DNA of 64,000 bases, from the sequence record LR597658, one strand, 5' to 3'. Of the stretch, positions 1 through 24,349 are shown piece by piece. The DNA comes from Escherichia phage VpaE1_ev108. Each line of letters opens with the position of its first letter. Position 1 is the first letter of the stretch. The notes below the pieces were generated by a model that had not been told where the DNA came from, made no database searches, and saw only the letters and a list, made by a program, of their open reading frames with translations. The translations under genes were made by a program, and so were the position numbers.

Positions 1-15
1 AACGACCACGCAGAA

Positions 16-3544: not shown

Positions 3545-3560
3545 TAAGTAATTCTCTTAA

Positions 3561-3587
3561 AAGGCTGCTTCGGCGGCCTTTTTTATT
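3561..3587 (+). terminator. intrinsic terminator
   Basis: GGCTGC-ttcg-GCGGCC hairpin followed by TTTTTTATTT. Confidence 0.6.
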
Positions 3588-3645
3588 TGTATTTTGTGCA
3601 GAGTGCTGTATAATTGTTGTCACGATAAACTAAACAGGAGAACCA

Positions 3646-4867: not shown

Positions 4868-4877
4868 GAGAAAACTT

Positions 4878-5342: not shown

Positions 5343-5353
5343 GGTTAAGATAC

Positions 5354-5380
5354 AGGCTCCTTCGGGAGCCTTTTTCATTT
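5354..5380 (+). terminator. intrinsic terminator
   Basis: AGGCTCC-ttcg-GGAGCCT hairpin followed by TTTTTCATTTT. Confidence 0.65.
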
Positions 5381-5394
5381 TAGGAGATTGTTAA

Positions 5395-5742
5395 ATGACA
5401 TTTAAAGAGTTCTGTCAAGCTACTTTCATAATTGTTTTCTTAGTTGGTGCAGGTGTCTGGGGAGGATACTCTTACAGAGACTATCAAGTTGCTGAAACTG
5501 AGCTAAATAATGAGAAACTAATAAGTGTTGCTAAAGATGCTTATCAGGAAGGTTTAGCCACACTCAGCACCAATTACAAAAATGATTTGAAAGACGTGCT
5601 TGCTAAGAATAAGCACACAAAAGAGGTACTAACATATGAAAAGACTAAGCCAGAGTTTTATAATGTTTGTGTTACTGATAATTATGTCAGGGTGTTCAAC
5701 GAACAAAGTGAACAGTACATTCAAAAACTCCCAAGTAAGTGA
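5395..5742 (+). CDS. membrane protein with N-terminal TM helix (i-spanin-like architecture?)
   Basis: hydrophobic segment FIIVFLVGAGVWGG then charged helical region; GGAGA SD upstream. Confidence 0.45.
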   Translation: MTFKEFCQATFIIVFLVGAGVWGGYSYRDYQVAETELNNEKLISVAKDAYQEGLATLSTNYKNDLKDVLAKNKHTKEVLTYEKTKPEFYNVCVTDNYVRVFNEQSEQYIQKLPSK

Positions 5743-5905
5743 GAGTGACAAGTACACTCAAGAAGAGTCAAGATTCACTGTCAAAGGTAATACTGGTAGT
5801 GATGTGGCAGCAGCCCTTGAGTTTTATCGTGATGGTTTTTACCAGTGCACAATCAAAGCTAATAACCTTATTGATATGATTTTATTAGGAAACAAACAGC
5901 AATGA
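5636..5905 (+). CDS. small lipoprotein (o-spanin-like or exclusion lipoprotein?)
   Basis: lipobox-like signal MKRLSQSFIMFVLLIIMSGC; starts inside 3' end of preceding gene in another frame; AGAGG SD upstream. Confidence 0.45.
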   Translation: MKRLSQSFIMFVLLIIMSGCSTNKVNSTFKNSQVSESDKYTQEESRFTVKGNTGSDVAAALEFYRDGFYQCTIKANNLIDMILLGNKQQ

Positions 5906-6171
5906 CAGAGAATGAAGACACTTTCTATGTAGAAGGGTACTTACTACTACCACGACCAAAAGAAACTTATATGCGTGTTGATTTCTCACCAACCATTATG
6001 GACAACGTGATGTGTCATATCTTTATGCAAGGTGTCACAGCACAGCTTAAGCATGTTGGTAAAGAGTGCAAAATAAAGGTTGACACTCATCCAGAAATCA
6101 AAGAGAATCACTACACATGGTTCTTACCAGACTCTAAAGAAATCTTAGCAGTTCTTAAAACGAGGAAATGA
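5902..6171 (+). CDS. hypothetical protein
   Basis: 89 aa ORF, ATGA start/stop overlap with upstream gene. Confidence 0.5.
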   Translation: MTENEDTFYVEGYLLLPRPKETYMRVDFSPTIMDNVMCHIFMQGVTAQLKHVGKECKIKVDTHPEIKENHYTWFLPDSKEILAVLKTRK

Positions 6172-6482
6172 TTATGCAATTCCAGCCAACAAATCGTGGA
6201 TTTTCTTATGCAGAATTTAAAGATGCTAAAGGGGAAATTTGTACTTTACAAGAGAGTTCATCATATGAACCATGTATCTGGTTAGGTGCTAAAGAGGTCT
6301 CTGTTCAGTACCTAGATGGTGGCTGGAAAACACTTGATATCCCAGCATTAGTAGGCAAAGATTTTGTAGGTAACCAAAGAATGAAACTCAATCAAGAACA
6401 GGTAAAAGAACTGTTGCCGTACCTTCAATACTTTGCTGAAAATGGTGAATTACCAACAGAGGAACTTACAAATGCAGATTAA
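6168..6482 (+). CDS. hypothetical protein
   Basis: 104 aa ORF, GAGGA SD, coupled to upstream gene. Confidence 0.5.
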   Translation: MIMQFQPTNRGFSYAEFKDAKGEICTLQESSSYEPCIWLGAKEVSVQYLDGGWKTLDIPALVGKDFVGNQRMKLNQEQVKELLPYLQYFAENGELPTEELTNAD

Positions 6483-6798
6483 TGGAAGAGACTTTGTAGC
6501 CGTTTACTACGAGAAAGATAAAGAAGTTGGCGTAGCACAAGTAACTTATGGCAATGGTAAGTGGTTATATGGAACAATCGCAGTAGTAGGAACAAGAAGT
6601 GATACAAAAACTTTTAAAGATTGTGTTGACCTTCTTGAAGAATCCATACACAATCATTGGTGTCTGATATGGATGACTGATAACGAAGTGATGGAGCGTT
6701 TCAAAAAGATTGATATCAACATTGACAGTATTGAGCATGTTGATTTATATGAACTAACTGAGAAGGTAAACTATGAAAGTAATACTAGCCAGAGATAA
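6472..6798 (+). CDS. hypothetical protein
   Basis: ORF-track start 6433 overlaps upstream gene by 50 nt; in-frame ATG at 6472 has GAGGA SD 8 nt upstream. Confidence 0.45.
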   Translation: MQINGRDFVAVYYEKDKEVGVAQVTYGNGKWLYGTIAVVGTRSDTKTFKDCVDLLEESIHNHWCLIWMTDNEVMERFKKIDINIDSIEHVDLYELTEKVNYESNTSQR

Positions 6799-7000
6799 AA
6801 AGACACGAAAACTTATAAGGTCAGCAGTATTCATTGGACGAAATGAGGTCATCCCATTTACAGCAAATGATGTGATAGCTTACAGGAAGAACTTAGTATT
6901 CACTGACTGCTTACGTGGCTTCATCTCTGAACCATTGGAAGACTTTAAAAGTCGTTGTGGTAAAGGTATCATCATTCAAGAGGCAATTATTCATGGCTGA
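6773..7000 (+). CDS. hypothetical protein
   Basis: 75 aa ORF in co-directional block. Confidence 0.4.
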   Translation: MKVILARDKKTRKLIRSAVFIGRNEVIPFTANDVIAYRKNLVFTDCLRGFISEPLEDFKSRCGKGIIIQEAIIHG

Positions 7001-7193
7001 CTTCTGTAAAGACTGTTCTATCGAAATGTTCGGACGTGATACAGGTGACTTAAAAGGTCTTATCACTGAAGATGATTTTAAAGCTGGTTATGCAATGCCA
7101 GTAATCTGTGAAGGTTGTGGGTGCATCTGGGTAGACCATGAGGGGCAACGTGTAAAACCTTCAGAAGATAAAGAATCTTGGGAGAGATGCTAA
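6993..7193 (+). CDS. small Cys-rich zinc-ribbon-like protein
   Basis: in-frame ATG at 6993 overlapping upstream stop (ATGGCTGA); CKDC ... CEGCGC motifs. Confidence 0.4.
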   Translation: MADFCKDCSIEMFGRDTGDLKGLITEDDFKAGYAMPVICEGCGCIWVDHEGQRVKPSEDKESWERC

Positions 7194-7979
7194 ATGGGTA
7201 TTGTAAAAATCATCAATGGTGATATCTTTGCTGCATTTGATAAAGGTAAGTTTGACATCATTGGTCATGGTTGTAACTGCATGAACCTAATGGGCGCAGG
7301 TATCGCTGACAAGATTTCTAAACTTTACCCAAAAGCATATGAGACCGATACAGAAGTTTATCTCTATGCAGGTGGTATAGGTCACAAACCCTGTGAGAAT
7401 TTACTAGGTAATTTCTCTGTAGCACGCTTAAAACAAGGTCGTATAGCTAACCTTTACACTCAGCTTAAGACTGGTAAAGATGCCCGATACAGTGCTTTAG
7501 AGTCATCTTTGAAACAGCTTAACAGATACTGTGAAGTTAATCAGTTGAAGAAAGTTGGTTTACCTATGATTGGTGCAGGTATCGGTGGACTTGACCCTCA
7601 AGCCATCACAGTTATCATCAATCAGGTGATGAAGAGTGTAGATGTTTATCTGTATGTCTATGAAGGCGAGATGTACCACAAGTTACGCTCAGGTTGGAAG
7701 AACTACTGTGAACCAGAATACTTTGCAGGTGTAGCAGTGTTCACAGATAACGCAGTTACCCTCTTCAGACGAAGAAAAGGTAAGATACATCAAAGTAACC
7801 CTCCGGTTGAAAAGATGTCTCTAAGTAACGCTCTAGTTACCCACCTGTCAAAGAGCAATCACAGAATTGCTGTAACATTTGGTAGTGATGCAGAAGCTTA
7901 TATCTATGCAAGAACTGATGAGGATATCGAGGCAATCTTCTCTTCACCAGAGCTTACCTTCTTAGACGCAAAGAACTAA
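7194..7979 (+). CDS. Poa1p-like macro domain protein (ADP-ribose / ADP-ribose-1''-phosphate processing)
   Basis: INGDIF ... IIGHGCNCMNLMGAGIADKISKLYPKAYE closely matches the Poa1p-type macro signature (IHSCNC..GGGIA..YPKA); GGGAGAG SD. Confidence 0.7.
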   Translation: MGIVKIINGDIFAAFDKGKFDIIGHGCNCMNLMGAGIADKISKLYPKAYETDTEVYLYAGGIGHKPCENLLGNFSVARLKQGRIANLYTQLKTGKDARYSALESSLKQLNRYCEVNQLKKVGLPMIGAGIGGLDPQAITVIINQVMKSVDVYLYVYEGEMYHKLRSGWKNYCEPEYFAGVAVFTDNAVTLFRRRKGKIHQSNPPVEKMSLSNALVTHLSKSNHRIAVTFGSDAEAYIYARTDEDIEAIFSSPELTFLDAKN

Positions 7980-8048
7980 GAAACCTCGTAGTATATTCAC
8001 AATAGACTAAGCCTTTCTTATCTGGTAAATTTTTCAGGTAAGGAGGGC

Positions 8049-8231
8049 TTTTTCATTTCAGATTTGTGCAGGTAGAGTTCTGTAGAGAAATCTATAGAGA
8101 AAATTTTGAACTCCAAAGAGAAAATTCATTTTCAAACTGTGCAGGTAATCTCCAAAGAGCTTTTTCATTTTCAAAACGTGCAGACCCCGCTCAGGTCGGG
8201 CAAGAAAAATCATTTTAGAATTGTGCAGGTA
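8049..8231. repeat. four direct repeats of ~26 bp (TTCATTTTCAAANYGTGCAGGTA) in intergenic region
   Basis: copies at about 8050, 8121, 8161 and 8205; a related TTTTGTGCAG motif also lies upstream of the gene at 3646. Confidence 0.6.
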
Positions 8232-8246
8232 GGTTTTTATAGACAG

Positions 8247-8290
8247 CCAGCCCAACCCCTCTCCCCCTCTTACTCCCCCTCTCCCCAAAA
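8247..8290. repeat. polypyrimidine (C/T-rich) tract
   Basis: AGCCCAACCCCTCTCCCCCTCTTACTCCCCCTCTCCCC in an otherwise AT-rich genome. Confidence 0.6.
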
Positions 8291-8394
8291 GTCAAGAGAA
8301 AAATTTGTAGCGGATTGAAAAATAATTCTTGATTTGCGTTCTGTTTTGTGGTAGTCGTGCGCACCCGTTTCATTACAGTTTTGCCAAAAATATT

Positions 8395-8438
8395 TTTAAA
8401 ATTTTTATTGACTCTTTGAACGTGGTTATCTAATATTT
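8395..8438 (+). promoter_or_regulatory. sigma70-like promoter
   Basis: TTGACT - 17 nt - TAATAT preceded by AT-rich TTTTTAAAATTTTTA. Confidence 0.5.
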
Positions 8439-8440
8439 AC

Positions 8441-8499
8441 ATCAACGGGGAGGGAATGACCTTCCCCACTAAATAAAATCCTAAACTGGAGATTCAAAA
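8441..8499 (+). repeat. type-A hairpin-leader cassette (copy 1 of 7)
   Basis: CAACGGGGAGGGAATGACCTTCCCC hairpin + ACTAAATAAA(A/G)TCCT(T)AAACT(A)GGAGATTC(A/T)AAAATG leader. Confidence 0.7.
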
Positions 8500-8688
8500 A
8501 TGGCATCAAGAAAAATTAAAGTTGGCGATGAGGTTAACATTAAGCACGAATACTCTTACAAAATGCTAACTATACGCTCTTATAAGGTTTATCAGGTGGA
8601 AGCTATCCACAAAGATAATACTTTTTCCTTAAAAGGGTATAGCGAACGTTTCCCTGCTGAACTCTTTGAGAAATGGAGCGCGAAATAA
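8500..8688 (+). CDS. hypothetical small protein
   Basis: 62 aa ORF directly behind type-A cassette (GGAGA SD). Confidence 0.55.
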   Translation: MASRKIKVGDEVNIKHEYSYKMLTIRSYKVYQVEAIHKDNTFSLKGYSERFPAELFEKWSAK

Positions 8689-8894
8689 TGCTTTACAGTC
8701 GTGAATTGATGGTTACAACTAACGTTAACACAAAGGCAAAACGTTTTTACATGAAAATCTGTGGCGTATGGTCCAGAATATCAGAAGCCGACTATTGCAA
8801 CTATGTAGAAACAGCTATTAATTCTAATTGCTACCTTACAAGAAACACTAAGAAATTTACAAGGCAGGCAGCGATTTACTACTACGACAAATAA
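8688..8894 (+). CDS. hypothetical small protein
   Basis: ATG overlapping upstream stop (TAATG); 68 aa. Confidence 0.45.
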   Translation: MLYSRELMVTTNVNTKAKRFYMKICGVWSRISEADYCNYVETAINSNCYLTRNTKKFTRQAAIYYYDK

Positions 8895-8980
8895 AGTACT
8901 TTACAGGGGGCTTAAAAGCTGATATCTTAAGCCCCAGATAAAGAGCTTTACCACTAAATCCTAAATTGGAGAACTTAAAA
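8892..8980 (+). repeat. type-B hairpin-leader cassette (copy 1 of 6)
   Basis: TAAAGTACTTTACA-GGGGCTTA..TAAGCCCC hairpin-AGATAAAGAGCTTTACCACTAAATCCTAAATTGGAGA..AAAAATG. Confidence 0.7.
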
Positions 8981-9361
8981 ATGGCATACCGTGCACCTAA
9001 ATTCATCAACAAAGACAACTTTCGCAACGCACTGGAGAAGTCACTTGATGAAAATTTTAAAGGTAATGTTATTGTTGTTCACTCGTTTAATTTTAAGTAT
9101 GATGTAAACGGGAATAGAATCAACCATTACACGGCAACCATGTTAGATGGTACACTTTCAAGTGAAAAAGCCATTTTACATGCACTTGCAGGACGTGGTA
9201 AAAACCTGATAAGATGCGATAAGAGACGTTATCAGGGTGGCGCATATGGTTATGATGATGCTGTTTATCATCTTGAAAATATGGGCTATTCAGTGGAAAA
9301 AGCTGGAGTGTCTCAAATAATCGGCAGTGACGGCTATGTGACAATTTTCAAAATTAACTGA
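8981..9361 (+). CDS. hypothetical protein
   Basis: ATG at 8981 behind type-B cassette (ORF-track start 8966 is a TTG inside the repeat). Confidence 0.55.
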   Translation: MAYRAPKFINKDNFRNALEKSLDENFKGNVIVVHSFNFKYDVNGNRINHYTATMLDGTLSSEKAILHALAGRGKNLIRCDKRRYQGGAYGYDDAVYHLENMGYSVEKAGVSQIIGSDGYVTIFKIN

Positions 9362-9449
9362 TAAAGTACTTTACAAGGGGCTTATAGTTCGATAAAGTAA
9401 GCCCCAGATAAAGAGCTTTACCACTAAATCCTAAATTGGAGATTCAAAA
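9362..9449 (+). repeat. type-B hairpin-leader cassette (copy 2)
   Basis: near-identical to copies at 10786 and 11915. Confidence 0.7.
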
Positions 9450-9707
9450 ATGGCTATTATCAAAAACGTTGTAATTCCTGCAAAAACTCGTGATGACGCT
9501 CGCATCATGGCGAAAAAGTTAGGCGGGAAAGTGGTTGACAATGGAAAACAATCCGCTGTAAGGTGGAACGTGAAGTCGGATAAGCAATTAACCTTAAAAC
9601 GTAATTCAAACAACCTTTTTAAAGGTGTAAAATCACTCGGTAAAGTGAACGTGTTTACCAAAAAAGGCTATAAAATGCACTTATCATTAACTGGCAATTT
9701 AATCTGA
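9450..9707 (+). CDS. hypothetical basic small protein
   Basis: 85 aa ORF behind type-B cassette. Confidence 0.55.
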   Translation: MAIIKNVVIPAKTRDDARIMAKKLGGKVVDNGKQSAVRWNVKSDKQLTLKRNSNNLFKGVKSLGKVNVFTKKGYKMHLSLTGNLI

Positions 9708-9802
9708 TAAAGTACTTTACAGGGGGCTTAAAAGTTGGTATCTTAAGCCCCAGATAAAGAGCTTTACCACTAAATCAAGTCCTTAAACTAGGAGACTCAA
9801 AA
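9707..9802 (+). repeat. type-B hairpin-leader cassette (copy 3, variant loop)
   Basis: GGGGGCTTAAAAGTTGGTATCTTAAGCCCC hairpin + conserved leader. Confidence 0.7.
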
Positions 9803-10099
9803 ATGAAATTATCAAATAAAGTTAGGGAAAATCTAAGCAAGTTACTCAACAAAATTGATTTTATCGAGACCTCAAGAAATACTCATGAGGTTATGGAATG
9901 GTTACACGGCAAAATAAAAGGCCGTCGTGTAGTGATTTGCTTATGGAATAGTTGCAGGGAGTATAAAAAGCCTGTATTGCAAATTAATGTTTATGATGAT
10001 ACTTGTAAAAGTCCTGTTAAGTCTGAAAGTGATTTACTAGAGTCTTATGAGATAACTTTAAATGGCAAAGTATCACGTAAAGAGGAAGCACCATGTTAA
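9803..10099 (+). CDS. hypothetical protein
   Basis: 98 aa ORF behind type-B cassette. Confidence 0.55.
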   Translation: MKLSNKVRENLSKLLNKIDFIETSRNTHEVMEWLHGKIKGRRVVICLWNSCREYKKPVLQINVYDDTCKSPVKSESDLLESYEITLNGKVSRKEEAPC

Positions 10100-10425
10100 T
10101 GATGGGTATCACTGCAATCATTGCCATTATAGCACTGTACAAGGCTTATAGCGCATATAATTTGGCAAGTAAGGCAATCACGCAACAGGTTAATAATAGC
10201 CTTGTAATGAGCTTTCTGGAGCGTTTAAGTGATGAACAAATAAAACGGTTAGAAATGAGCTTCAGATTTCAATCAAAAACTTATCAAATCAGCGACATTT
10301 TCAAAGATAATTTTCAGCTTGTCGATGATTATAACTCTCTGATAAATGCTTTAAATATCAGTGACTTAAAAGACTATTACACTGTAATTGTCCAAGAACT
10401 GAACAAACGAAAAAATTTCTCTTGA
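10093..10425 (+). CDS. hypothetical membrane protein
   Basis: N-terminal hydrophobic helix MLMMGITAIIAIIALY; overlaps upstream stop. Confidence 0.5.
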   Translation: MLMMGITAIIAIIALYKAYSAYNLASKAITQQVNNSLVMSFLERLSDEQIKRLEMSFRFQSKTYQISDIFKDNFQLVDDYNSLINALNISDLKDYYTVIVQELNKRKNFS

Positions 10426-10450
10426 TTTTAGTTTTAAAAACAAGTAAATT

Positions 10451-10515
10451 ACTAATCAACGGGGAGGGAATGACCTTCCCCACTAAGTAAAGTCCTTAAA
10501 CTAGGAGATTCTAAA
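10451..10515 (+). repeat. type-A hairpin-leader cassette (copy 2)
   Basis: ACTAATCAACGGGGAGGGAATGACCTTCCCC + leader. Confidence 0.7.
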
Positions 10516-10788
10516 ATGTACACTACTAACAACGGTCGCACCTTAAACGTAACCCTACGCCACTATGTAAACGGTGTAATGCACTTCGAGGATTTACAAG
10601 CTGAACAGCACATTTTGGATTGGCAACTTGCAGGATTCCAAAAAACTGCTACCGGATACGGGAAAAAGATTCCAACTAGCTGGAAAGTATACTACGAAGG
10701 CCGTTTGCGTAGAATTTATCAAGATGTATGCGGCAATAGCGCATCAAGTTACATCATAGTAAAAGGCAAAAAGCTGCATTTAGCATAA
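10516..10788 (+). CDS. hypothetical protein
   Basis: 90 aa ORF behind type-A cassette. Confidence 0.55.
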   Translation: MYTTNNGRTLNVTLRHYVNGVMHFEDLQAEQHILDWQLAGFQKTATGYGKKIPTSWKVYYEGRLRRIYQDVCGNSASSYIIVKGKKLHLA

Positions 10789-10873
10789 AGTACTTTACAA
10801 GGGGCTTATAGTTCGATAAAGTAAGCCCCAGATAAAGAGCTTTACCACTAAATCCTAAATTGGAGATTCAAAA
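10786..10873 (+). repeat. type-B hairpin-leader cassette (copy 4)
   Basis: repeat begins at the upstream stop codon. Confidence 0.7.
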
Positions 10874-11278
10874 ATGGCTATTAATAATCGTGAGTTATCT
10901 ATCTTAAAAGCACGTTTGACCGTCAACCGGATTAATGTTATCACATCATCAGCACCAGATGAAACATTGCAAAACATTATTGGGAAGATTCAAAGTATTA
11001 TCTTAGACGTTGAAAGCGTAAAAAACTCATTGGCTGACGTTGCAGCCGGTATCACGCTAGACGGTGCACAACATGAAATGGCCGACATGTTAGGCAAATC
11101 AAAGGTAATGAATAAAGAGCTTGATTTAAAGATGTTCCGATTTGCTGTTAAAGTGTGGCTATCCGTCGAGTATGACGCTAATTTTGCAATCGCTGATTTC
11201 TTTGCCACTTGGTTACAACGTAACTTAACAAATCATGATTTCCGTGATGTCTGTGATGCAATCTACGCAGAACTTTAA
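10874..11278 (+). CDS. hypothetical protein
   Basis: 134 aa ORF behind type-B cassette. Confidence 0.55.
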   Translation: MAINNRELSILKARLTVNRINVITSSAPDETLQNIIGKIQSIILDVESVKNSLADVAAGITLDGAQHEMADMLGKSKVMNKELDLKMFRFAVKVWLSVEYDANFAIADFFATWLQRNLTNHDFRDVCDAIYAEL

Positions 11279-11316
11279 AAAGATGTTGACACTGATTTTT
11301 AGATAGATTAAATTAC
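11275..11316 (+). promoter_or_regulatory. sigma70-like promoter
   Basis: AAAAAGATG-TTGACA - 17 nt - TAAATT. Confidence 0.5.
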
Positions 11317-11378
11317 TCATCAACGGGGAGGCAATAACCTCCCTACTAAATAAAGTCCTTAAACTAGGAGATTCTAAA
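11314..11378 (+). repeat. type-A hairpin-leader cassette (copy 3, compensatory stem variant)
   Basis: GGGGAGGCAATAACCTCCCTAC: stem changed on both strands relative to other copies. Confidence 0.7.
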
Positions 11379-11576
11379 ATGGCTATTATTAACGGCTTAA
11401 CCATTGAAACAACACACATCAAAGATATCAAAGTTGGTGATGTAGTCCTTTCCCACGGCGTAGAAAAAACTGTCACTGCAAAGGATATCAAAGAGGATTC
11501 TTTCATGGGTAGAACTCTCTTCGGTGATTCTTATTGCTTAGGTTATCTTGCAGTTTTAAAAGTTGTCAAAAATTAA
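11379..11576 (+). CDS. hypothetical small protein
   Basis: 65 aa ORF behind type-A cassette. Confidence 0.5.
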   Translation: MAIINGLTIETTHIKDIKVGDVVLSHGVEKTVTAKDIKEDSFMGRTLFGDSYCLGYLAVLKVVKN

Positions 11577-11577
11577 G

Positions 11578-11669
11578 TAATAAAGTACTTTACAAGGGGC
11601 TTAAAAAGTTGGTATCTTAAGCCCCAGATAAAGAGCTTTACGCAGTCCTTAAACTAGGAGATTAAAAAA
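11578..11669 (+). repeat. type-B hairpin-leader cassette (copy 5)
   Basis: GGGGCTTAAAAAGTTGGTATCTTAAGCCCC + leader variant. Confidence 0.7.
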
Positions 11670-11915
11670 ATGATGAACTATTTCAATGTCCCTGATACCT
11701 GCCGACTATTGACACAAGAAGAAAACTTGGGTAAACCTTTTCTTTACCACATGCCAGACAACACCCCAAAAACTTATAGTTACAATGTCAACCGTTTTAC
11801 CGCATACGCTGCAAAGAACGGTTATAAGTTGGTCACTCAAAAAGTAATGCTGGTTACAACCGCTGACGAGATTCCTACAGTTGCAGTTAAACTAATTTTC
11901 TCAAAAAAAAGTTAA
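11670..11915 (+). CDS. hypothetical protein
   Basis: 81 aa ORF behind type-B cassette. Confidence 0.55.
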   Translation: MMNYFNVPDTCRLLTQEENLGKPFLYHMPDNTPKTYSYNVNRFTAYAAKNGYKLVTQKVMLVTTADEIPTVAVKLIFSKKS

Positions 11916-12004
11916 ATAAAGTACTTTACAAGGGGCTTATAGTTCGATAAAGTAAGCCCCAGATAAAGAGCTTTACCACTAAATCCTAAACTGGAGATTC
12001 AAAA
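11915..12004 (+). repeat. type-B hairpin-leader cassette (copy 6)
   Basis: near-identical to copies at 9362 and 10786. Confidence 0.7.
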
Positions 12005-12568
12005 ATGAAATGCTATCACGGAACTACCCTCAAAAACTTTGTAAACCTGCTGAATGGTGGCGACAAGCCGGAAGGAATCTGGAACTGCTCATACATGGAT
12101 GATTGTTTCTACGTTTACCCAATGAACAAGATTATCAAAACGGAATGTCTGGAAGATGAGGAAGATTCTTACATTCGTGAACGCTGCATTCAAAACGCTT
12201 TAGAATCTGGGCTTATTACGGCAGCTTTCCAAATGGAAACGCAGGACGTAATTGTCATTGAGATGGATATCCCAGAGGAAGAGCTAGAGGATGATTATTC
12301 TTGTGACAACATGAGCGATATCGCCAGCTTTACCGGACACTTTGATAAAAATTGGATTATTGGCCTTCACTCGACGAAATTTAGTGCGATGTATGCACCT
12401 TTCTTTGTACCAGATGCAACTAACCGCAATTTAGGCTATGTTGACGATGATTTGTTAAGTATGGCGAAAATTGTACAGAATAGCGGTGATAGTTCCGTGT
12501 TTTGTGACTTGCTGGATAAAATCACGGCAAACATCACAGAGCGCAATTTAAAAGACTTTTTAGGTTAA
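12005..12568 (+). CDS. hypothetical acidic protein
   Basis: 187 aa ORF behind type-B cassette. Confidence 0.55.
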   Translation: MKCYHGTTLKNFVNLLNGGDKPEGIWNCSYMDDCFYVYPMNKIIKTECLEDEEDSYIRERCIQNALESGLITAAFQMETQDVIVIEMDIPEEELEDDYSCDNMSDIASFTGHFDKNWIIGLHSTKFSAMYAPFFVPDATNRNLGYVDDDLLSMAKIVQNSGDSSVFCDLLDKITANITERNLKDFLG

Positions 12569-12631
12569 TCAGTACAAAGACACCAACTTCCAACTTAAGG
12601 CCCATACAGGGCCATTTAAAGGGCTTAAATC

Positions 12632-12865
12632 ATGCTTACAACCATTTATCTTATCCTTTCTATTTGTAATGGTCATTCATGTGATTTTAAAGGGCTTGAG
12701 GAGTTTACAGGGAGTAAAGAAAATGCTATTCAAGTTTGCCAGATAGCAAGACAAGACTATCCCGCCAGTGATGATATTCAATGCTACTTTAAGACAGAAG
12801 ATGAAGACGGCGTCTATTTTGACAGTGTCGATGGTCAATATGAAATTATCATTGAAAAAGACTAG
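12632..12865 (+). CDS. hypothetical small protein
   Basis: 77 aa ORF; preceded by a different hairpin (GGCCCATACAGGGCC). Confidence 0.45.
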   Translation: MLTTIYLILSICNGHSCDFKGLEEFTGSKENAIQVCQIARQDYPASDDIQCYFKTEDEDGVYFDSVDGQYEIIIEKD

Positions 12866-12890
12866 ACAAGCCTGATAAAAGTCTGTAAAT

Positions 12891-12956
12891 TGTCAATCAA
12901 CGGGGAGGGAATGACCTTCCCCACTAAATAAAGTCCTTAAACTAGGAGATTCTAAA
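12891..12956 (+). repeat. type-A hairpin-leader cassette (copy 4)
   Basis: TGTCAATCAACGGGGAGGGAATGACCTTCCCC + leader. Confidence 0.7.
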
Positions 12957-13298
12957 ATGGCTTATGTAACTGTAATTACCGATAAAGAAGATTCATCTTG
13001 GTCAACTCAAGTAAGTGATAAGATGTCACCTATGCAGTGCCTAAAATACTTTGAGCAGTGGAACAAAGGCGAGGATGTCAGCCCCTTTCAAGTGATGCAA
13101 ATTATCCATACAGATAACGAAGGGAACAAAACGACACTTAATAGCGAGTATTACGCAAATCGTTTTGAGAGTCGAGTTGAAACGATGAAGGGGCTGCGTG
13201 AGGCCGGATATGGGCACATTGCCGCCTTGTTATGGGATAGCCTACTAAAAAATCAGCGTATCAGCTATGTAAAACCTGAAAAAATATTCATCAGTTAA
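12957..13298 (+). CDS. hypothetical protein
   Basis: 113 aa ORF behind type-A cassette. Confidence 0.55.
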   Translation: MAYVTVITDKEDSSWSTQVSDKMSPMQCLKYFEQWNKGEDVSPFQVMQIIHTDNEGNKTTLNSEYYANRFESRVETMKGLREAGYGHIAALLWDSLLKNQRISYVKPEKIFIS

Positions 13299-13319
13299 TC
13301 AATAACTTACAAAAAACTT

Positions 13320-13360
13320 TTAAAAAGATGTTGACAATCCCTCTTGACATTGGTAACTTT
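13320..13360 (+). promoter_or_regulatory. sigma70-like promoter (tandem TTGACA boxes)
   Basis: TTAAAAAGATG-TTGACA - 17 nt - TAACTT. Confidence 0.45.
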
Positions 13361-13454
13361 GTTCGAGGGGGGTTTATCTAAAAGGGATTAACTTAAAAGA
13401 TTCTTTATAGATAGACTTAAAAAAATTGCTTGCAATCAGATATCAAAACAAGTA

Positions 13455-13522
13455 AATTACTCATCAACGGGGAGGCAATAACCTCCCTACTAAGTAAAGT
13501 CCTTAAACTAGGAGATTCTAAA
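13455..13522 (+). repeat. type-A hairpin-leader cassette (copy 5)
   Basis: same compensatory stem variant as copy 3. Confidence 0.7.
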
Positions 13523-14053
13523 ATGAACAAGTTCAAAGCTATCAACTATATTCGTTCAAATAATGTAATGTCTAAGCCCGTTAAAGATACCTATGAATTT
13601 CGTTGTAATGGGGTACACTTTGCAACCATTACCAAATCAGAAAACGGGGCTTATTACGTTCATCGTCGTAATGTTGCAACCGTTGTAGTCTCTCACTTTA
13701 TGCAAGCTGTCGCGGAATTATTACCGTTATTCTTAGAGATTTATCTAGATGAGTGTAAAAACGTTCACAATCACGTTAAAAACCTTTTAAATAGTTATAA
13801 AATGGCTTATGAACGTTCTATCAAGTCCTTAAACAAGTTTTACAACGCACCTAAAAATACTGTATCAATAGCCTATGCTGCAAATGGTGAGATGGTAAAC
13901 TTATCCAATGTGGAAGAAATCAAGCTGCATGATTTACGCCCTAGCGGTTACTCTAAGACTCTCGGTGAAGGTTTAACGTTCAATATCAAGAACTTAGAGA
14001 AAACTTTAAAAGATATTGAAAAAGATATTGACGAGACAATCAAAAATCTGTAA
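13523..14053 (+). CDS. hypothetical protein
   Basis: ATG at 13523 behind cassette; ORF-track start 13430 would translate through the repeat. Confidence 0.55.
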   Translation: MNKFKAINYIRSNNVMSKPVKDTYEFRCNGVHFATITKSENGAYYVHRRNVATVVVSHFMQAVAELLPLFLEIYLDECKNVHNHVKNLLNSYKMAYERSIKSLNKFYNAPKNTVSIAYAANGEMVNLSNVEEIKLHDLRPSGYSKTLGEGLTFNIKNLEKTLKDIEKDIDETIKNL

Positions 14054-14114
14054 ATTGTCAATCAACGGGGGATGACCTCCCCCACTAAATAAAATCCTAA
14101 ACTGGAGATTCAAA
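14051..14114 (+). repeat. type-A hairpin-leader cassette (copy 6, variant stem GGGGGA/TCCCCC)
   Basis: CAACGGGGGATGACCTCCCCCAC + leader. Confidence 0.7.
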
Positions 14115-14378
14115 ATGGAACACGTCGAACTGACCACACTTTTACAAATTGCAACCGACAAAGAGGATGTAGCACTATTCCATCGTATCGAGAGTGATTT
14201 GTTCAATGGTGAAATCATTAAAGAGTCTTACGAAGTTGTCGGATTCAAAGACGGTAAAGCGTTCGGATTCTTTGACCTCGACAAAGGCAAAGCGGTTACA
14301 AAATATGATGTTTTATCTTGTGAGATTCTGACAAAATACAACGAAAAAAGACTTGCAACATACGCCAACATGCAGTAA
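14115..14378 (+). CDS. hypothetical protein
   Basis: 87 aa ORF behind type-A cassette. Confidence 0.55.
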   Translation: MEHVELTTLLQIATDKEDVALFHRIESDLFNGEIIKESYEVVGFKDGKAFGFFDLDKGKAVTKYDVLSCEILTKYNEKRLATYANMQ

Positions 14379-14458
14379 ATTACTAATCAACGGGGAGGGA
14401 ATGACCTTCCCCACTAAATAAAGTCCTTAAACTACTTCCTAAACTGGAGATTCTAAAA
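14376..14458 (+). repeat. type-A hairpin-leader cassette (copy 7, leader partly duplicated)
   Basis: leader contains CCTTAAACTACTTCCTAAACTGGAGA duplication. Confidence 0.7.
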
Positions 14459-14707
14459 ATGGCAACTATCCGCGCTACTGTTAACGAGTTCGGTTTTTCC
14501 TCTCTGGATGTTAAATTTGACATTGCAGGCACTGATAACACCTTTGAAATGGTGAAAAGTCTTATCAGTCAGACCATCAAAGATTATAATCCTTCGGATG
14601 AGTTCTGGGAGGAAACAAAACAAGAAGTTCTCAAGGATGGTTATACTTATCACTATTGGGGAGAAAAAATCGTCTCCCTGTACTACAACAAACAAGATTA
14701 TAACTAA
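14459..14707 (+). CDS. hypothetical protein
   Basis: 82 aa ORF behind type-A cassette. Confidence 0.55.
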   Translation: MATIRATVNEFGFSSLDVKFDIAGTDNTFEMVKSLISQTIKDYNPSDEFWEETKQEVLKDGYTYHYWGEKIVSLYYNKQDYN

Positions 14708-14745
14708 TCGACGCAGCGGGGCTAAATAGCCCCAGATACCTCAAC

Positions 14746-14770
14746 AGCCCCTATTTAAAGGGGCTTTTTT
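14746..14770 (+). terminator. intrinsic terminator closing the small-ORF array
   Basis: GCCCCT-atttaa-AGGGGC hairpin followed by TTTTTT; preceded by a type-B-like hairpin GGGGCTAAATAGCCCC. Confidence 0.6.
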
Positions 14771-16341
14771 ACGTCTATCCAATCCTTATACAATCCCTTT
14801 CCAGAATCTTATCAGACCTTAAAAGCAATAACTCTATAGTCTACTCTATAACCTCTTATCAAATCAACTTAAATAAAAGCCAATAACCCCCAGAAAGGGG
14901 ATGGCCCATTTAAACGCTCTATAAAGCTCTATAACAGCCTTATCAACCTAACTTAAGGGATTGCATTAACCAACCTTAAAAAGCTCTTTACAGGGCTTTA
15001 TAGAGACTTAAAAGAATCTTATAAGGGTGTAAGCTTTATTATCTCATTAGTATTCTTGTGAATATCTAAACAACCCCTTGATAGTCACTAAAAAGTATGT
15101 TATAGGGGCTTTAAAGTTACTTTGAAGTAGCTTAAAAGTTACGTAAAAGAGGCTATAAAGTTACGTAAATGCTAGCCCCCTTAACATTTTCTTAACAATT
15201 TCTTAACAAACCCTACATAGTTATGCTTGTTAGCAACTTGTTAGCCCCTTGTTAAATCTCTGTTAATACCACGTAAAAGCTTTGTAAGAGTCTTTGACAT
15301 AGCCTTTAAAGCTTCTGTAAAGCCCTATAAAGAGCTTTCTTCATAGTTGGGGTGTAATTACTAGGAAGAGCCTTAAAAGAGCTTACAAGGAGCTATAGAG
15401 AGCTTTTAAGAGGGCTATTTAAAGAGTCACTAAGAGGGAAAGGGAACGATAAGAAAGAGATAGTGACCATGTTAATAGCTTGTTAAAAAGATTAAACACT
15501 TGTTAGAGACTTGTTAATTATCTTAACAAAATAACTCTTAACATTTAACTACTTAGCTCTTGTTAGTCATCTGTTAAGATTCTGTAAAGACTATTCAGCA
15601 CTTGTTAGAAAACTGTTACAACCTTGTTAGACTTGTTAAGAATCTGTTAAGACCTTTGAAGAGTTGTTAAGAAGATGTGAGAACTGTTAAGAGATTGTTA
15701 AGGATATTTTAAAATTTTGCAAAGGGGATGTTACAGGGATGTTAAGGGCTACCAAGCAGATATACATCTTCTACAGATATTTTTCAGTTCCTTCAAAGAC
15801 CCTAAAAAATGACTTGATAGTCCTATTTTATAAAAATTTTAAGATTCTGAATAATTACCTATACAGCCTTTTAAAAATACAGGTAATAACAGGCTTATAA
15901 GATACCTTGTTAGTACCGTGTTAGACCTTGTGAGATAAGGTCTGTAAAGATATTCCTGTTAAGTTTGTTAAAACAGTCTATATAGAGGCTTAGTAGCACC
16001 TAGTGAACACCTATAGAGAGTAACATAGCTGACATAGAGATTAAGAGGTGTATAGGAGCTTCTAAGAGGATGTAGAGAGATGGTTAAGGTGATTGTATAG
16101 GTTGTTTAGAAGGCTTGTTAGAGGGCTATTTAGAAGGGCTATACAGAGGGCTATTAAGACCACTAGATAGATACTAAGATACTATATAGTACTATATAAC
16201 TATATAGAGAGTAAGATTAAGAAGGTTGTTAAGAAGGATAGATATTTTATTCACATATGATGGTGACCCAGAGGTTGGGACAACCGATAAAATTTTATAA
16301 AAATTAAAAAGCCCCCGATTAAGGAGGCTCTTAAGATATTT
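14771..16341. promoter_or_regulatory. 1.6 kb ORF-free, motif-dense region between convergent gene blocks (candidate origin / regulatory hub)
   Basis: no ORF of 60 aa or more on either strand; more than 20 copies of YTGTTAAG/CTTGTTAG between about 15180 and 16240; tandem ~20 bp units of GCT(A/T)T(A/T)AAAG.. and palindromic CTTWWAAG 8-mers. Confidence 0.5.
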
Positions 16342-16890
16342 TTAAATCAGTGTTTCCAGAACTGTTTTTAGGGATGACTTAGTTGTCTGATAAAAATGAG
16401 TGAATCCATTGTTGTTATCAAATATCTGCATCATGATATCATCTCCCTTGATTGGGTACACTCGGATATCATAGTGAAAACCATTAAAGACACAAGAACC
16501 ACTATAGAATGCACTAAAGTCAGCCACTGAGATATACTCTTCATGACCTGAGATTTTTATACAGACACCCTTACTTGGTCTCTTAGGGTTGATATCTTCC
16601 ATCACAGACATACTCTGTCCACCAAGAGATACCATAGTGACCACTTTACGGTTCTTCTGTTTAAAGTACATCTTAACTTTCTGTAAAGTGTCTTCATAGA
16701 ACGGATAAGACCTTTCTACAAAGATTCCTTCAAGTGGCTCTTTACCATTTTCAACTTCTCGGTTATGCCGTACTGCAAAGATAATTTGTTCGAACCAGTC
16801 AAGATTTTCTTCGGAGAGTGCTTCCCGAACATCCTTCCAGTCAAGTACTAAGTAGTTACCTTCAACTTCTTTTAAGTTATCTTTTTCCAT
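16342..16890 (-). CDS. hypothetical protein
   Basis: start moved to in-frame ATG at 16890, 13 nt below upstream stop; ORF-track start 16965 would overlap by 62 nt. Confidence 0.45.
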   Translation of the reverse strand: MEKDNLKEVEGNYLVLDWKDVREALSEENLDWFEQIIFAVRHNREVENGKEPLEGIFVERSYPFYEDTLQKVKMYFKQKNRKVVTMVSLGGQSMSVMEDINPKRPSKGVCIKISGHEEYISVADFSAFYSGSCVFNGFHYDIRVYPIKGDDIMMQIFDNNNGFTHFYQTTKSSLKTVLETLI

Positions 16891-16903
16891 AGCTATCACA
16901 CCA

Positions 16904-17368
16904 TTATCGTAAAACTTGATATTCTGGTACTGCGAATTTATTACTATTGTTCTTGATGAGGTCATCCTCTGAAACTAAAAATGTAATACCACATAAGTGT
17001 CTGTAACGACTATCATACTCGAATATCTTAAACAGATATTTACCATCATGATAAACCTGTTGCACTTCACCTTCTGCAACAATCTCGCCTGTAATAAAAT
17101 TTTTTAGTTTATACACATTACCAACTTTAGGTACTGTTTTCATCTCAGGCTCTTTTAGTGCTACACCTATTTTTGCATCACCGAGTAAATGAGAACTCTC
17201 AAAAGCTACGTGTTTCATATAAGCTTCTGAGCATTCCCAGATAAAACAATGTACAAGAACCTTAGCAGCATGTCTTGAACAGTTCAACTTATCACAAATT
17301 TCTGTGTACATCTCATCTTTAGTAGAATTGTCAAGCATTGCTCTTTGCACTACTTCTTTAATTTTCAT
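16904..17368 (-). CDS. hypothetical protein
   Basis: 154 aa ORF in co-directional minus block. Confidence 0.5.
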   Translation of the reverse strand: MKIKEVVQRAMLDNSTKDEMYTEICDKLNCSRHAAKVLVHCFIWECSEAYMKHVAFESSHLLGDAKIGVALKEPEMKTVPKVGNVYKLKNFITGEIVAEGEVQQVYHDGKYLFKIFEYDSRYRHLCGITFLVSEDDLIKNNSNKFAVPEYQVLR

Positions 17369-17786
17369 AAGCTCTCCGAATAACCCTATTAAGCATCTCT
17401 AAAGTCAGCTTTCCAGATTCTAAATGCGGCATAACAAGCTTTAAAGCTTTTTCAACATCATGCACAACATCTATTATACCTTCTGCATAGGCTTCCACAA
17501 GGATATCTTTTACGTTTTGTGGATTACCTTTTTGTGGTATCACTAGGCACATATCAAACTCATTTGCTTGGGGATGGTTCTTACCACGCCAGAAACCGTC
17601 CTTATCAAAGCTTATAAAGTTATCCTCATTAAAATTAATACCACAAACCTCAAATTTGTCTAGCACTATGCAATTGAGAGGGTAAAAATCACTCATATCA
17701 CTAATTCCAAGAAACTTAACAGTAGCTATATACCTCTGTGTCTTTGCATCTACAATGTCAAGCTCTTTACCTACATGCTCTTTCAT
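17358..17786 (-). CDS. hypothetical protein
   Basis: 142 aa ORF. Confidence 0.5.
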   Translation of the reverse strand: MKEHVGKELDIVDAKTQRYIATVKFLGISDMSDFYPLNCIVLDKFEVCGINFNEDNFISFDKDGFWRGKNHPQANEFDMCLVIPQKGNPQNVKDILVEAYAEGIIDVVHDVEKALKLVMPHLESGKLTLEMLNRVIRRAYEN

Positions 17787-17838
17787 TTCGCTACCTTCTA
17801 AGTTTCTACAAAGGGGCTATCAAGTAACCCCTAAGTTA

Positions 17839-18063
17839 TTACTCAGACTTTTCAGTCTTCTTATCGGATTTCTTACTAGTCTTCTTCTCAGCTTTCTGTT
17901 CAGACTCCTTCTCAGGAGTTGCCTTGATAACCATATCAAGAAGCTCTGATAAGTCACTCTTCAGCAAAGTAACAGGCTGCTCGTTGTAGAAGTTTTTGTC
18001 AAGATAAACTTTAAACTCTTCTATAGAAGGAAATCCAAAAATTGGTACAGGTGTCTTAATCAT
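17839..18063 (-). CDS. hypothetical small protein with Lys/Glu-rich tail
   Basis: 74 aa ORF. Confidence 0.45.
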   Translation of the reverse strand: MIKTPVPIFGFPSIEEFKVYLDKNFYNEQPVTLLKSDLSELLDMVIKATPEKESEQKAEKKTSKKSDKKTEKSE

Positions 18064-18139
18064 TACTTAGTCTCTCCATAGGCATCTTTTAAGATTGCCT
18101 TGTTAATCATTTCAGCGATTGCAAAACGAACACATACAG

Positions 18140-18643
18140 CTATAATTGTAGGTTGCATTCTTTACTTACCTCTTCAAGTTTAATCTCCGAGTCCTTAAGT
18201 CGTTTCTTATGAACTCTGAATCTCATTAGTGCGATGATGATACCAACTAAAGGGACAGCATACAAGTACCAAACATCATATACCTTTGCAGTAATCTGTG
18301 TAATGGTTAAGTCTTGAGCTATGGAACTGATTGCTGATACTGCCAGTAATGTTGCTAGGAAAAATGCCAGTACCATTACCGTACTTAAACAACCTCTGGC
18401 ATGGTGTTCATGCTTAATGCACTTATTCTTTTCGTCAACAACCCTGTTGTAGTCATTTGTAAAGTCTCTGTAGAAAGCTTTCAAGTATTCTTGAGTGTAG
18501 CCTTCAAAGCAACCTGTACCATACCAATAATCACCACCAAAGTGTGCTATGATACCGGTATCCCCATTTGGTTTGGTTACTCTCAAAGAGGTGTGATGAC
18601 GAGTATCTTGATAGTCTATTTTGTATCTTTCTTCATAAATCAT
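18140..18643 (-). CDS. hypothetical membrane protein
   Basis: start at ATG 18643 (ATGA overlap with upstream stop, GAGGGA SD); hydrophobic segment VMVLAFFLATLLAVSAISSIA. Confidence 0.5.
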   Translation of the reverse strand: MIYEERYKIDYQDTRHHTSLRVTKPNGDTGIIAHFGGDYWYGTGCFEGYTQEYLKAFYRDFTNDYNRVVDEKNKCIKHEHHARGCLSTVMVLAFFLATLLAVSAISSIAQDLTITQITAKVYDVWYLYAVPLVGIIIALMRFRVHKKRLKDSEIKLEEVSKECNLQL

Positions 18644-18873
18644 TTTCCAATCCCTCTCAATCGTTTGTTCCACTCAAGGTCAACAAGTCTTTGCAGGACT
18701 TTCCCTCTAGGTGTTACACCTTTTAAATCTGCATCGTAGCAACGGTAAAAGTCACCTTCAGCGTGTTTACCATAGCATTTTCTGATATTCTGACTTCTAC
18801 GATATTGTTCTAATAGGGACAGCTTGTAGTAATCTTCAACTGTAGTTAGTTTTTTCATTCTTTCACCACGCAT
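18640..18873 (-). CDS. hypothetical small protein
   Basis: 77 aa ORF. Confidence 0.45.
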   Translation of the reverse strand: MRGERMKKLTTVEDYYKLSLLEQYRRSQNIRKCYGKHAEGDFYRCYDADLKGVTPRGKVLQRLVDLEWNKRLRGIGK

Positions 18874-18931
18874 CTTCTTAAGAAGCTAAAAAGGGAACTA
18901 CCTCTCAATAGCTCCCATTATAATCAATATT

Positions 18932-19522
18932 TTATACTCGGCAAGAGTACTTCTTAGGCATTAATGCGCTACGTTTGTTACTCTCTTCACTCAACAATGC
19001 GATAAAGTCATCACCTTTACCTTTCCACGGGCTGAATGAAGGGATATGCTCACGAATAGCCTCAATAACCGTCTTAAGTGCTGTATTTTTCATCCACCAA
19101 TCAGAATCTGCTGATGCCACTACGTAGTATCCACCTTCATCAGTCAGAATTGGCTCTGAGATACATGGTGAAATCAAAGTTGTGACGATTGAACCATTGT
19201 TCATGTAGTATGTACGCTTAATAACCTTTTCAAGAAGCTTGTGAAGGTCACCAAATAGTGTTACAAGTTCTTTGTGGTCGATGTCTTTTTCAAGGCTTGC
19301 TCGGTACTTCAATAGTGCAGCATCAACCTCTCTGTCATTAAACTTGAAATATTGAACTTCATCAACAAGGCAAACACTGATATTGTTCACATTCATAGTC
19401 AACTTACAAACTTTTGCAGGAGAGTTGATGCTTGGTTGAAAAAGTGCAACACACCCTTCAATGTTTCCAAAATGTTGGACTAGTGTTACTTGTGGAGTAA
19501 TATTCTGTTGCTCTTCGGACAT
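18932..19522 (-). CDS. hypothetical protein
   Basis: 196 aa ORF. Confidence 0.5.
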   Translation of the reverse strand: MSEEQQNITPQVTLVQHFGNIEGCVALFQPSINSPAKVCKLTMNVNNISVCLVDEVQYFKFNDREVDAALLKYRASLEKDIDHKELVTLFGDLHKLLEKVIKRTYYMNNGSIVTTLISPCISEPILTDEGGYYVVASADSDWWMKNTALKTVIEAIREHIPSFSPWKGKGDDFIALLSEESNKRSALMPKKYSCRV

Positions 19523-23749: not shown

Positions 23750-23821
23750 GGCAGACCTACAGCTTTAAGTAAGATGGTACAGTAATCCATACAACAAGTC
23801 AAGAACTATTGCAAGTTAAAA

Positions 23822-23870
23822 AAGTTGTTGACAAAGTACTTGACAAGGTGTAGGCTTATAAATACTTAGA
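23822..23870 (+). promoter_or_regulatory. tandem sigma70-like promoters in divergent intergenic region
   Basis: AAAAAGTTG-TTGACA..TTGACA followed by TAGGCT / TACTTA at 17-nt spacing. Confidence 0.4.
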
Positions 23871-23977
23871 AGATAACTTAAAAGGTTCCTCTAAAAAGGC
23901 TATTTAAACAGATATCTTTCTGGATATCTATCTTTTATCTTAAAAGCCTTTTAAGAGGTCTTATAAGAGGCATACCA

Positions 23978-24349
23978 ATGAAAAACAGAACAAACAAAGG
24001 CCAGTTTAAAAAAGGCCAGTCTGGAAACCCATCTGGAAGACCAAAAGGCTCTCGTAACAAAAGCTCACTTGTAAAAGCTCAACTGACCATTGATAATTCT
24101 GCTGAGTTTGCTGCAAAGTTGTTTGAGGCGATTGTTACAAGGGACGCTGCTAAGCTTGCAGAGTTCGGGTTAAACACAGACGACGTAACCATCAAGAGCA
24201 TGATTGAGGTAGGTAAAACTATCTTTACTCACTCAGCAGGTGAGATGAAAGCACTTGCAGCAGACACTAAGAAGACTCCTGATAATGGTGGTCAACAACA
24301 GACAGATAACAAACCAACGTTCTCTGCTGTTGCAACCCTCAAAAAATAA
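23978..24349 (+). CDS. hypothetical protein with GNPSGRPKG motif
   Basis: 123 aa ORF, AGAGG SD; basic Gly/Pro N-terminus. Confidence 0.5.
   Translation: MKNRTNKGQFKKGQSGNPSGRPKGSRNKSSLVKAQLTIDNSAEFAAKLFEAIVTRDAAKLAEFGLNTDDVTIKSMIEVGKTIFTHSAGEMKALAADTKKTPDNGGQQQTDNKPTFSAVATLKK

Follow-up and report, generated by a model that had tools for sequence, protein, structure and literature searches.

A gene-free stretch of a Felix O1-type phage genome as the probable chromosome terminus, with a terminal repeat carrying a helically phased lattice of TGTTA motifs

The sequence of Escherichia phage VpaE1_ev108 (record LR597658) contains a stretch without apparent genes at positions 14771–16341 of the 64,000 nucleotides analyzed here (referred to as the window), and the question raised by this locus is what such a long piece of non-coding DNA does for the phage. 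The longest open reading frames (ORFs) in it measure 53, 33 and 31 amino acids (aa), in line with an original prediction, made from the letters alone, that no ORF of 60 aa or more exists where two gene blocks converge. The functions suggested at that time were an iteron-type replication origin, a packaging site or a binding-site array. We consider it very likely that 14771–16341 represents the concatemer junction in a Felix O1-type phage and that both ends of the linear virion chromosome fall within it. The packaging site is supported in kind by this reading, since the physical ends and a direct terminal repeat (DTR) of 579 bp are placed inside the region; the genome terminus itself had not been recognized. 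The terminal-repeat identity of the region is already known for relatives in the genus.

A sequence search found 14771–16341 conserved in 255 phage records, with 85–94% identity to more than 180 Felix O1-like (Felixounavirus) records and weaker matches to Mooglevirus. The window is collinear with other genomes opened at rIIA (ASO1A, Felix O1), and the sequence assigns the source genome to Felixounavirus, as a Felix O1-type phage whose record was opened at rIIA. Positions of the ends could be taken from relatives with annotated terminal repeats. Phage Pr103Blw has a DTR annotated at 1–581 and 87841–88421 (“short direct terminal repeat”), with two identical copies whose length of 581 bp was obtained with PhageTerm (PMC8303462). 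Mooglevirus HP1 has 570-bp repeats annotated at both ends, again as identical copies. Aligned to the window, these DTRs, from two genera and annotated independently, both correspond to exactly 15175–15753, and the DTR annotated in UAB_69 lies at the same place, at most 2 nt off on each side. In UAB_Phi87, a DTR of 608 bp was determined by Bal31 digestion, loss of two restriction fragments and sequencing run-off (PMC4837284); the same boundary sequences enclose 614 bp in that genome. The boundaries thus agree to 2–6 bp with the UAB_69 annotation and the UAB_Phi87 measurement. Many records start exactly at the equivalent of 15175, and their first ~580 bp are repeated at the other end; at least five further records (ZX4221, I14.1, SPJ41, E9, NBEco005) start or end at the terminus. 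Kolesnikvirus vEam_W_25 (PP079183.1) has a 401-bp exact repeat at its ends, and in that record the right terminus is immediately followed by the final nine bases, AGATCGGAA, which are a remnant of an Illumina adapter. This remnant is a contaminant in the deposited sequence and marks a physical DNA end.

By homology to these phages, the virion DNA would have its left end at 15174/15175 and its right end at 15753/15754. The DTR (15175–15753, plus strand) begins with GCCCCCTTAACA and finishes with ATGTTAAGGGCTACC, the next bases of the concatemer being AAGCAGATATACA. None of its 16-mers was found elsewhere in the 64-kb window, and this single copy argues that the repeat, which would be present at both virion ends, was collapsed from two copies by assembly. 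Because the DTRs of relatives map there and the window copy appears collapsed, the region is read as a concatemer junction. On either side the DTR is flanked by unique non-coding DNA, 404 bp adjoining the right chromosome end (14771–15174) and 588 bp adjoining the left chromosome end (15754–16341). Terminator scans placed two hairpins at the close of the plus-strand gene block (14716–14770, the second at 14746–14765 and followed by a T run) and another hairpin at the close of the minus-strand block (16307–16332, minus strand), both being annotated terminators in ASO1A. The genes closest to either chromosome end make up the two convergent blocks, and transcription of each block runs toward its own end until a terminator stops it.

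The sequence at the proposed right cut site is conserved. The block ATGTTAAGGGCTACC followed by AAGCAGATATACA (15739–15766, plus strand) spans the right end, and the junction of TGTTAAGGGCTACC with AAGCAGATATACA was invariant in ~33 Ounavirinae loci from IMG/VR but for two single-base exceptions. In Kolesnikvirus vEam_W_25, too, the right terminus is followed by the right half of this junction, AAGYAGATATACA. Among relatives the DTR varies in length from 569 to 614 bp, and because the lengths differ in steps near 10–11 bp, the variation suggests gain and loss of units. The large terminase gene lies at 31416–33032, and the large terminases of UAB_Phi87 and Felix O1 have been grouped with DTR-type terminases (PMC4837284). 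Headful (pac) or cos packaging did not fit the relatives, which have fixed ends and an exact repeat; the restriction pattern of UAB_Phi87 was unchanged by heating, which argues against cos ends (PMC4837284).

In the mechanism that we propose, the terminase would recognize the junction in replicated concatemers during packaging and would cut at 15174/15175 and 15753/15754. As in T7-type phages, duplication of the repeat would provide every chromosome with two copies, one per end; cut-and-duplicate packaging is known from T7 and is assumed for this family. Several points weigh against the overall picture. The termini of this isolate are positioned purely by homology, the duplication mechanism is borrowed from T7, and both the binding of a protein to the arrays described below and their need in packaging are conjectures from sequence patterns. 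Kolesnikvirus has not kept the sequence of the left boundary, which confines a mirror-image arrangement of the two cut sites to Felixounavirus and Mooglevirus, and no small terminase subunit is recognized in the phage (PMC4837284).

Some further observations concern the same boundaries. A 35-nt inverted repeat (86% complementary) at 14980–15014 and 15304–15338 straddles the left terminus, with its center near 15159, ~16 bp from the cut site. When E. coli genomes were searched with the junction, one marginal match was obtained, and none in plasmids; these searches thus gave no sign of satellites sharing the packaging site. The marginal match (locus L080; E. coli 40EC, NZ_CP070920.1, 1958382–1958531) covers the right-boundary part with 71% identity over 148 nt (E = 3e-6) and lies in an unannotated spacer between serine recombinase and DNA adenine methylase genes of a prophage-like island; it is probably due to chance. 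One IMG/VR locus (L073), a distant relative by size, was discarded as a chance match inside a coding region. GU169904.1, deposited as ‘Staphylococcus phage SA1’, is 90% identical to this region at 135349–137137 and is probably a chimeric or contaminated assembly.

If the region is the terminus, what are its many short repeats? The motif YTGTTAR occurred 94 times in the window, compared to 70 ± 8 in shuffled sequences, and 24 of these 94 copies fell within 14771–16341, which makes up 2.5% of the window. Of those 24, 21 were on the plus strand, and CTTGTTAG was 213-fold enriched in the region relative to the rest of the window. The comparison with shuffles had been proposed in the original prediction as a check on motif enrichment, and its outcome, together with the count of 24 and a densest part at 15469–15745, agrees with the more than 20 copies and the dense stretch reported there. 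Within the DTR we found 24 units matching [ACT]TGT[TAG][AG], successive units being spaced by 11, 22, 33, 20 or 9 bp, with two longer gaps of 49 and 154 bp as exceptions. Pairwise distances between cores peaked at 11, 20/22, 31/33 and 42/44 bp; twelve core pairs were exactly 11 bp apart, and runs reached up to four consecutive units.

These units are arranged in several blocks. Closest to the left terminus, at 15181–15209 on the minus strand, are three consensus TGTTAAGAAAW units exactly 11 bp apart (block conservation 0.94; 22.7 and 22.5 bits with the matrix introduced below). All three units read toward the left terminus, with 6 bp between it and the end of the outermost core; since these left-most units are inverted, sites read toward both ends. 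Four YTGTTAR units with 11-bp spacing follow at 15227–15266 (plus strand) in the motif scan. In the middle of the DTR, five GAGCTWWWAAG units with 11-bp spacing were read from the sequence by eye, with no chance estimate (15366–15422, plus strand). The main array (15469–15745, plus strand) comprises 18 units of [ACT]TGT[TAG][AG], mostly TGTTAR, spaced by 9, 11, 20, 33 or 49 bp, and extends as far as the right terminus. Four Ounavirinae lineages have the lattice, among them Kolesnikvirus (Erwinia) and the unclassified Pectobacterium phage Wc4-1, and these two have flanking motifs that differ from those described here. In Wc4-1 (locus L082, MN270892.1, ~90900–92039), a gene-free stretch at the end of the circularized record of this distant, unclassified Ounavirinae member carries 11-bp-phased TGTTA, TGTTG and TGTGA units plus TTAACA pairs, and the termini are probably located there too.

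The pattern of conservation indicates which parts of the region are kept. Compared with Mooglevirus HP1, the three non-coding parts were 81–83% identical (83% for 14771–15174 and 81% for 15754–16341), and five flanking genes were 60–73% identical at the DNA level. The non-coding ends are therefore more conserved than the adjacent genes. Across 18 aligned relatives, the TGTTA positions were 95–99% conserved and the next base 92%, compared to 72–81% for the spacers (p = 3e-13). This is the footprint that would be expected of sequence-specific protein binding to a 5–6-bp core on one face of the helix, and we take the helically phased TGTTA(R) cores to be putative protein-binding sites. The idea of a binding-site array thereby gains indirect support from core conservation, from helical phasing and from the match to the box of phosphorylated ArcA (ArcA-P) that is discussed below. 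On these cores, proteins would assemble cooperatively on one face of the repeat, the sites being oriented toward both termini. Such an assembly would label the ends, or give them a shape, so that they can be recognized, cut, paired or protected.

The sequences outside the DTR carry repeats of their own. Tandem Repeats Finder detected many short arrays in the region, with periods of 10–12 and 22 bp. A 22-bp unit with the core GCTWWAAAG is repeated 2.9 times at 15107–15169, within the left flank, so the tandem units of ~20 bp that had been proposed are real, but the GCT(A/T)T(A/T)AAAG pattern given for them is one base too long: GCTWTWAAAG had no exact match in the region and one elsewhere in the window (25761, minus strand). 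Four CTCTATA copies to the left of the DTR (14832–14933) are mirrored by four (T/C)ATAGAG copies to its right (15981–16209). A CTTATAAG palindrome at 15018 lies in a fully conserved block, 15008–15027, at 157 bp outside the left boundary, and a second one at 15894 is 141 bp outside the right boundary; no blocks of the region are more conserved than the two that contain them. The right flank also contains further TGTTAR pairs (15907–15971) and three to four GGGCTAT units with a period of 12 bp (16105–16159). Together, the inverted CTCTATA/TATAGAG sets and the CTTATAAG palindromes may arrange the two cut sites as mirror images of each other. These features are clear in Felixounavirus and Mooglevirus only, and because the left boundary differs in Kolesnikvirus, the mirror-image idea is limited to those two genera. 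The lattice and the flanking motif sets were not found described in the literature searched, in which the length and position of the repeat are described. As far as we found, the helical TGTTA lattice with its mirror-image flanks, kept above the level of the neighboring genes, would be a previously undescribed feature.

Which protein might occupy these sites? One explanation, which we regard as quite possible though short of probable, is that the arrays are bound by a phage protein, for example an unrecognized small terminase subunit that would flag the repeat for the large subunit. In general, small terminases bind to repeated sites in packaging signals. As no small terminase has been identified in this family (PMC4837284), either an unassigned gene does this job or the job is done differently. 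Two candidates were considered. The first is a 123-aa DUF5681 protein (23978–24346, plus strand), encoded by the first gene to the right of a divergent promoter region, which carries a basic arm at its N-terminus, KGQSGNPSGRPKG, and is kept wherever arrays are present (60% identity in Kolesnikvirus, 49% in Wc4-1). A single-sequence structure model predicted a disordered N-terminus and two long helices forming a helical hairpin of low confidence (pLDDT 67), and the protein is a possible DNA binder or small terminase; searches gave no PHROG function, no NCBIfam match and no relative in the PDB. The second candidate is an acidic 66-aa ORF directly upstream of the large terminase gene (31209–31409, plus strand), which matched PHROG 4397, a group without assigned function, and for which no family with a function was found. 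However, neither candidate has a family, structure or name that points to terminase activity or DNA binding, and the structure model of the DUF5681 protein is of low confidence. A Pfam scan of 68 early and unassigned ORFs returned, as DNA-binding families, one Cro/C1-type helix-turn-helix (HTH) protein and one HNH/AP2 endonuclease-type match, in addition to a Macro domain and the DUF5681 protein. The Cro/C1-type protein is the only recognized classical DNA binder in the window, and HTH proteins of this type usually read inverted rather than direct repeats.

A second, more tentative explanation nests inside the terminus reading and names a host protein as the binder: the arrays would be binding sites for the response regulator ArcA in its phosphorylated form. 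ArcA-P recognizes 10-bp direct-repeat elements with the core TGTTA and a center-to-center distance of 11 bp, its sites having two to five elements, some of them 22 bp apart, that are bound cooperatively (PMC3798270, PMC4173790). The DTR shows the same architecture, with TGTTA cores in direct orientation and two or more repeats spaced by 11 bp. To score these sites, the 18-bp ArcA box matrix was rebuilt from 115 of the 128 boxes of Table S3 and reproduced the published scores with r = 0.99. Thresholds were set at 9 bits (the weakest box validated by chromatin immunoprecipitation (ChIP) scores 9.1) and at 15 bits, with dinucleotide shuffles as background. The DTR contained 18 matches of at least 9 bits, compared to 1.1 ± 1.1 in shuffles, and eight of at least 15 bits, compared to 0.04; these eight are two thirds (8/12) of all such matches in the 64-kb window. 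The two best matches (22.5–22.7 bits), which adjoin the left terminus, exceed the best of the 115 boxes (21.4 bits). The DTRs of Pr103Blw, UAB_69, Felix O1, HP1 and vEam_W_25, from three genera, scored alike, and ten control segments of the window did not.

Other observations are compatible with ArcA as the binder. The positions under selection are exactly TGTTA plus one base, and the degenerate units TGTAA, TGTGA and TGTTG are variants that are found in ArcA boxes too. The TGTTA core is constant across lineages while the flanking motifs differ between Felixounavirus and Kolesnikvirus, and a conserved host factor would fit because of this. No ArcA-like protein was found among the six-frame ORFs of the window (phmmer, best E = 1.3). 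However, a matrix match is not equal to binding, and TGTTAG makes up 6 of the 16 forward DTR cores, with G being rare at that position in ArcA boxes. ArcA is also mostly unphosphorylated and inactive in aerated cultures, in which these phages grow well, and no link between ArcA and these phages was found in the literature searched. A phage protein of similar preference could produce the same pattern, given that most phage genes lack a known function, that the window leaves out about a quarter of the genome and that the DUF5681 protein is a candidate. Taken together, we rate actual binding of ArcA to the arrays as doubtful, somewhat on the unlikely side. If it does bind, ArcA may be an architectural helper at the chromosome ends, like integration host factor (IHF) at lambda cos or ArcA in Xer recombination at psi, or the repeat may be a decoy through which host metabolism is altered in habitats poor in oxygen. 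In the literature searched, we found no description of how closely the lattice resembles the architecture of ArcA-P sites.

Two other regulators were compared with the units and set aside. PhoP also uses 11-bp direct repeats, but its site is TGTTTA, and none was noticed in the DTR by eye, without a count. The DeoR site (TGTTAGAA/TTCTAACA) is a palindrome, and the units here are direct. The IHF consensus was not enriched in the window and had a single match in the region (15071–15083, minus strand, TATCAAGGGGTTG), ~100 bp outside the left terminus. Isolated strong ArcA-box matches of 15–17 bits were also present outside the terminus, at 54285–54313 (plus strand), 34718 (plus strand) and 34898 (minus strand); one of them consists of three repeats, TTGTTGACTGATTGTTAAGATGGTGTTAA, and lies close to where the tail-fiber gene ends.

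An iteron-type replication origin, in which direct repeats bind an initiator and an AT-rich patch melts, appears improbable to us. The region is strongly conserved and has phased direct repeats and short AT-rich patches (e.g., 15700–15725), as an origin would. However, the arrays coincide exactly with the terminal repeat, and their 11-bp unit with a 5–6-bp core is unlike iterons, for which units of 17–22 bp are typical. Only one DnaA box was found in the region, DnaA boxes were not enriched in the window, and no initiator-like gene was recognized among the neighbors, a test limited by the proteins of unknown function there. The GC-skew analysis that had been suggested as a check for an origin was run, and the turn falls where gene direction switches; because the two coincide, the skew gives no separate information on an origin. 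The suggested origin thus has no specific support, although origin and terminus are not mutually exclusive. Hardly credible at all is a neutral spacer with repeats arisen by replication slippage, or a non-coding RNA gene: a position between convergent terminators and unit gain or loss in DTRs of 569–614 bp (steps of ~10–11 bp) would suit it, but the region is more conserved than the flanking genes, cores are kept as spacers drift, Rfam searches at gathering and permissive thresholds gave only tRNAs and two chance-level matches, and sigma-70 promoter-like sites were not in excess (8 compared to 7.3 in shuffles).

The proposed terminus can be compared with systems that are already known. The DTRs of Felixounavirus and Mooglevirus (UAB_Phi87, Pr103Blw, UAB_69, HP1) are homologous, have the same boundaries and occupy the same place between convergent gene blocks, with no difference of substance from the DTR described here, which is 579 bp long. 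The ends of T7 and T3 reportedly consist of a 160-bp terminal repeat with arrays of CCTAAAG-type heptamers in and beside it, with packaging from concatemers. Like the region described here, they have a short terminal repeat that is exact, flanks free of genes and a short motif in many copies around the junction, and the presumed cut-and-duplicate mechanism is shared. In contrast, the phage family, terminase lineage, motif and repeat length are unrelated, the spacing here is strictly helical (11, 22 and 33 bp), and the core matches the site of a host regulator. The multi-repeat ArcA-P sites of E. coli at icdA, astC and acs likewise have a TGTTA core in direct orientation with 11- or 22-bp spacing, and the scores obtained here are within or above the ChIP-validated range. 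Those sites have two to five repeats at promoters, whereas ~24 units are present here in 579 bp, at a chromosome end without a promoter and often with G after TGTTA. IHF acts at lambda cosB, and ArcA acts with PepA at psi of pSC101 in Xer recombination; a role of ArcA at psi is also given in a bioRxiv abstract. Common to these systems is the idea of a host DNA-binding protein that shapes the cut site of an enzyme, which is here predicted from sequence.

Motifs related to those of the terminus region were also seen elsewhere in the window. The palindromic CTTWWAAG occurred 39 times in the window compared to 10.8 expected, with nine copies in the region and four at 23877–23967. It had been proposed that the 8-mers of the region recur in the divergent region and between tRNAs; this is correct for CTTWWAAG, which recurs in the divergent region and near tRNAs (26793, 27638), but YTGTTAR is absent from 23750–23977. 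In the divergent promoter region (23830–23970), the four CTTWWAAG copies lie within 90 bp, GGCTATTTAAAC echoes motifs of the terminus region, and tandem TTGACA hexamers are present at 23828–23846. Two near-identical intergenic modules (ctttacagggggCTTAAAAG...aagccccagataaagagctttaccactaaat), each with a hairpin, were found at 8890–8965 and 9706–9781. They are the counterparts of the 57-bp direct repeats described in Felix O1 and share CTTAAAAG and CTTTAC vocabulary with the terminus region. Among the 35 ORFs scanned in window positions 1–19522 (early and end-proximal genes), one has a Macro domain (Pfam E = 3.9e-7).

Felix O1-type genomes that were deposited opened at rIIA hide their true ends, and the 1.6-kb stretch described here should be annotated as a terminus with a collapsed 579-bp repeat. 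Engineering of these phages (Felix O1 and Bas63-type therapy and typing phages) should leave the region intact. Its internal structure is more interesting than its identity: the ends are conserved and the helical TGTTA lattice is present in four lineages with no known small terminase, and this combination therefore offers a handle on how phages recognize their ends. The match to ArcA is a cheap, testable hypothesis for the involvement of a host redox regulator, and not a result. In its fullest form, which we consider unlikely, the terminal repeat of this subfamily would be built of ~20 consensus-grade ArcA-P sites, the strongest of them a few bp from the left end, with either a structural use or a titration of ArcA. 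If this were true, the oxygen-sensing regulator of the host would be a structural part of the phage ends, for packaging recognition, end protection or pairing. Alternatively, with repeat copies numbering in the hundreds in each infected cell, ArcA would be titrated and the metabolism of the host rewired in the oxygen-poor gut.

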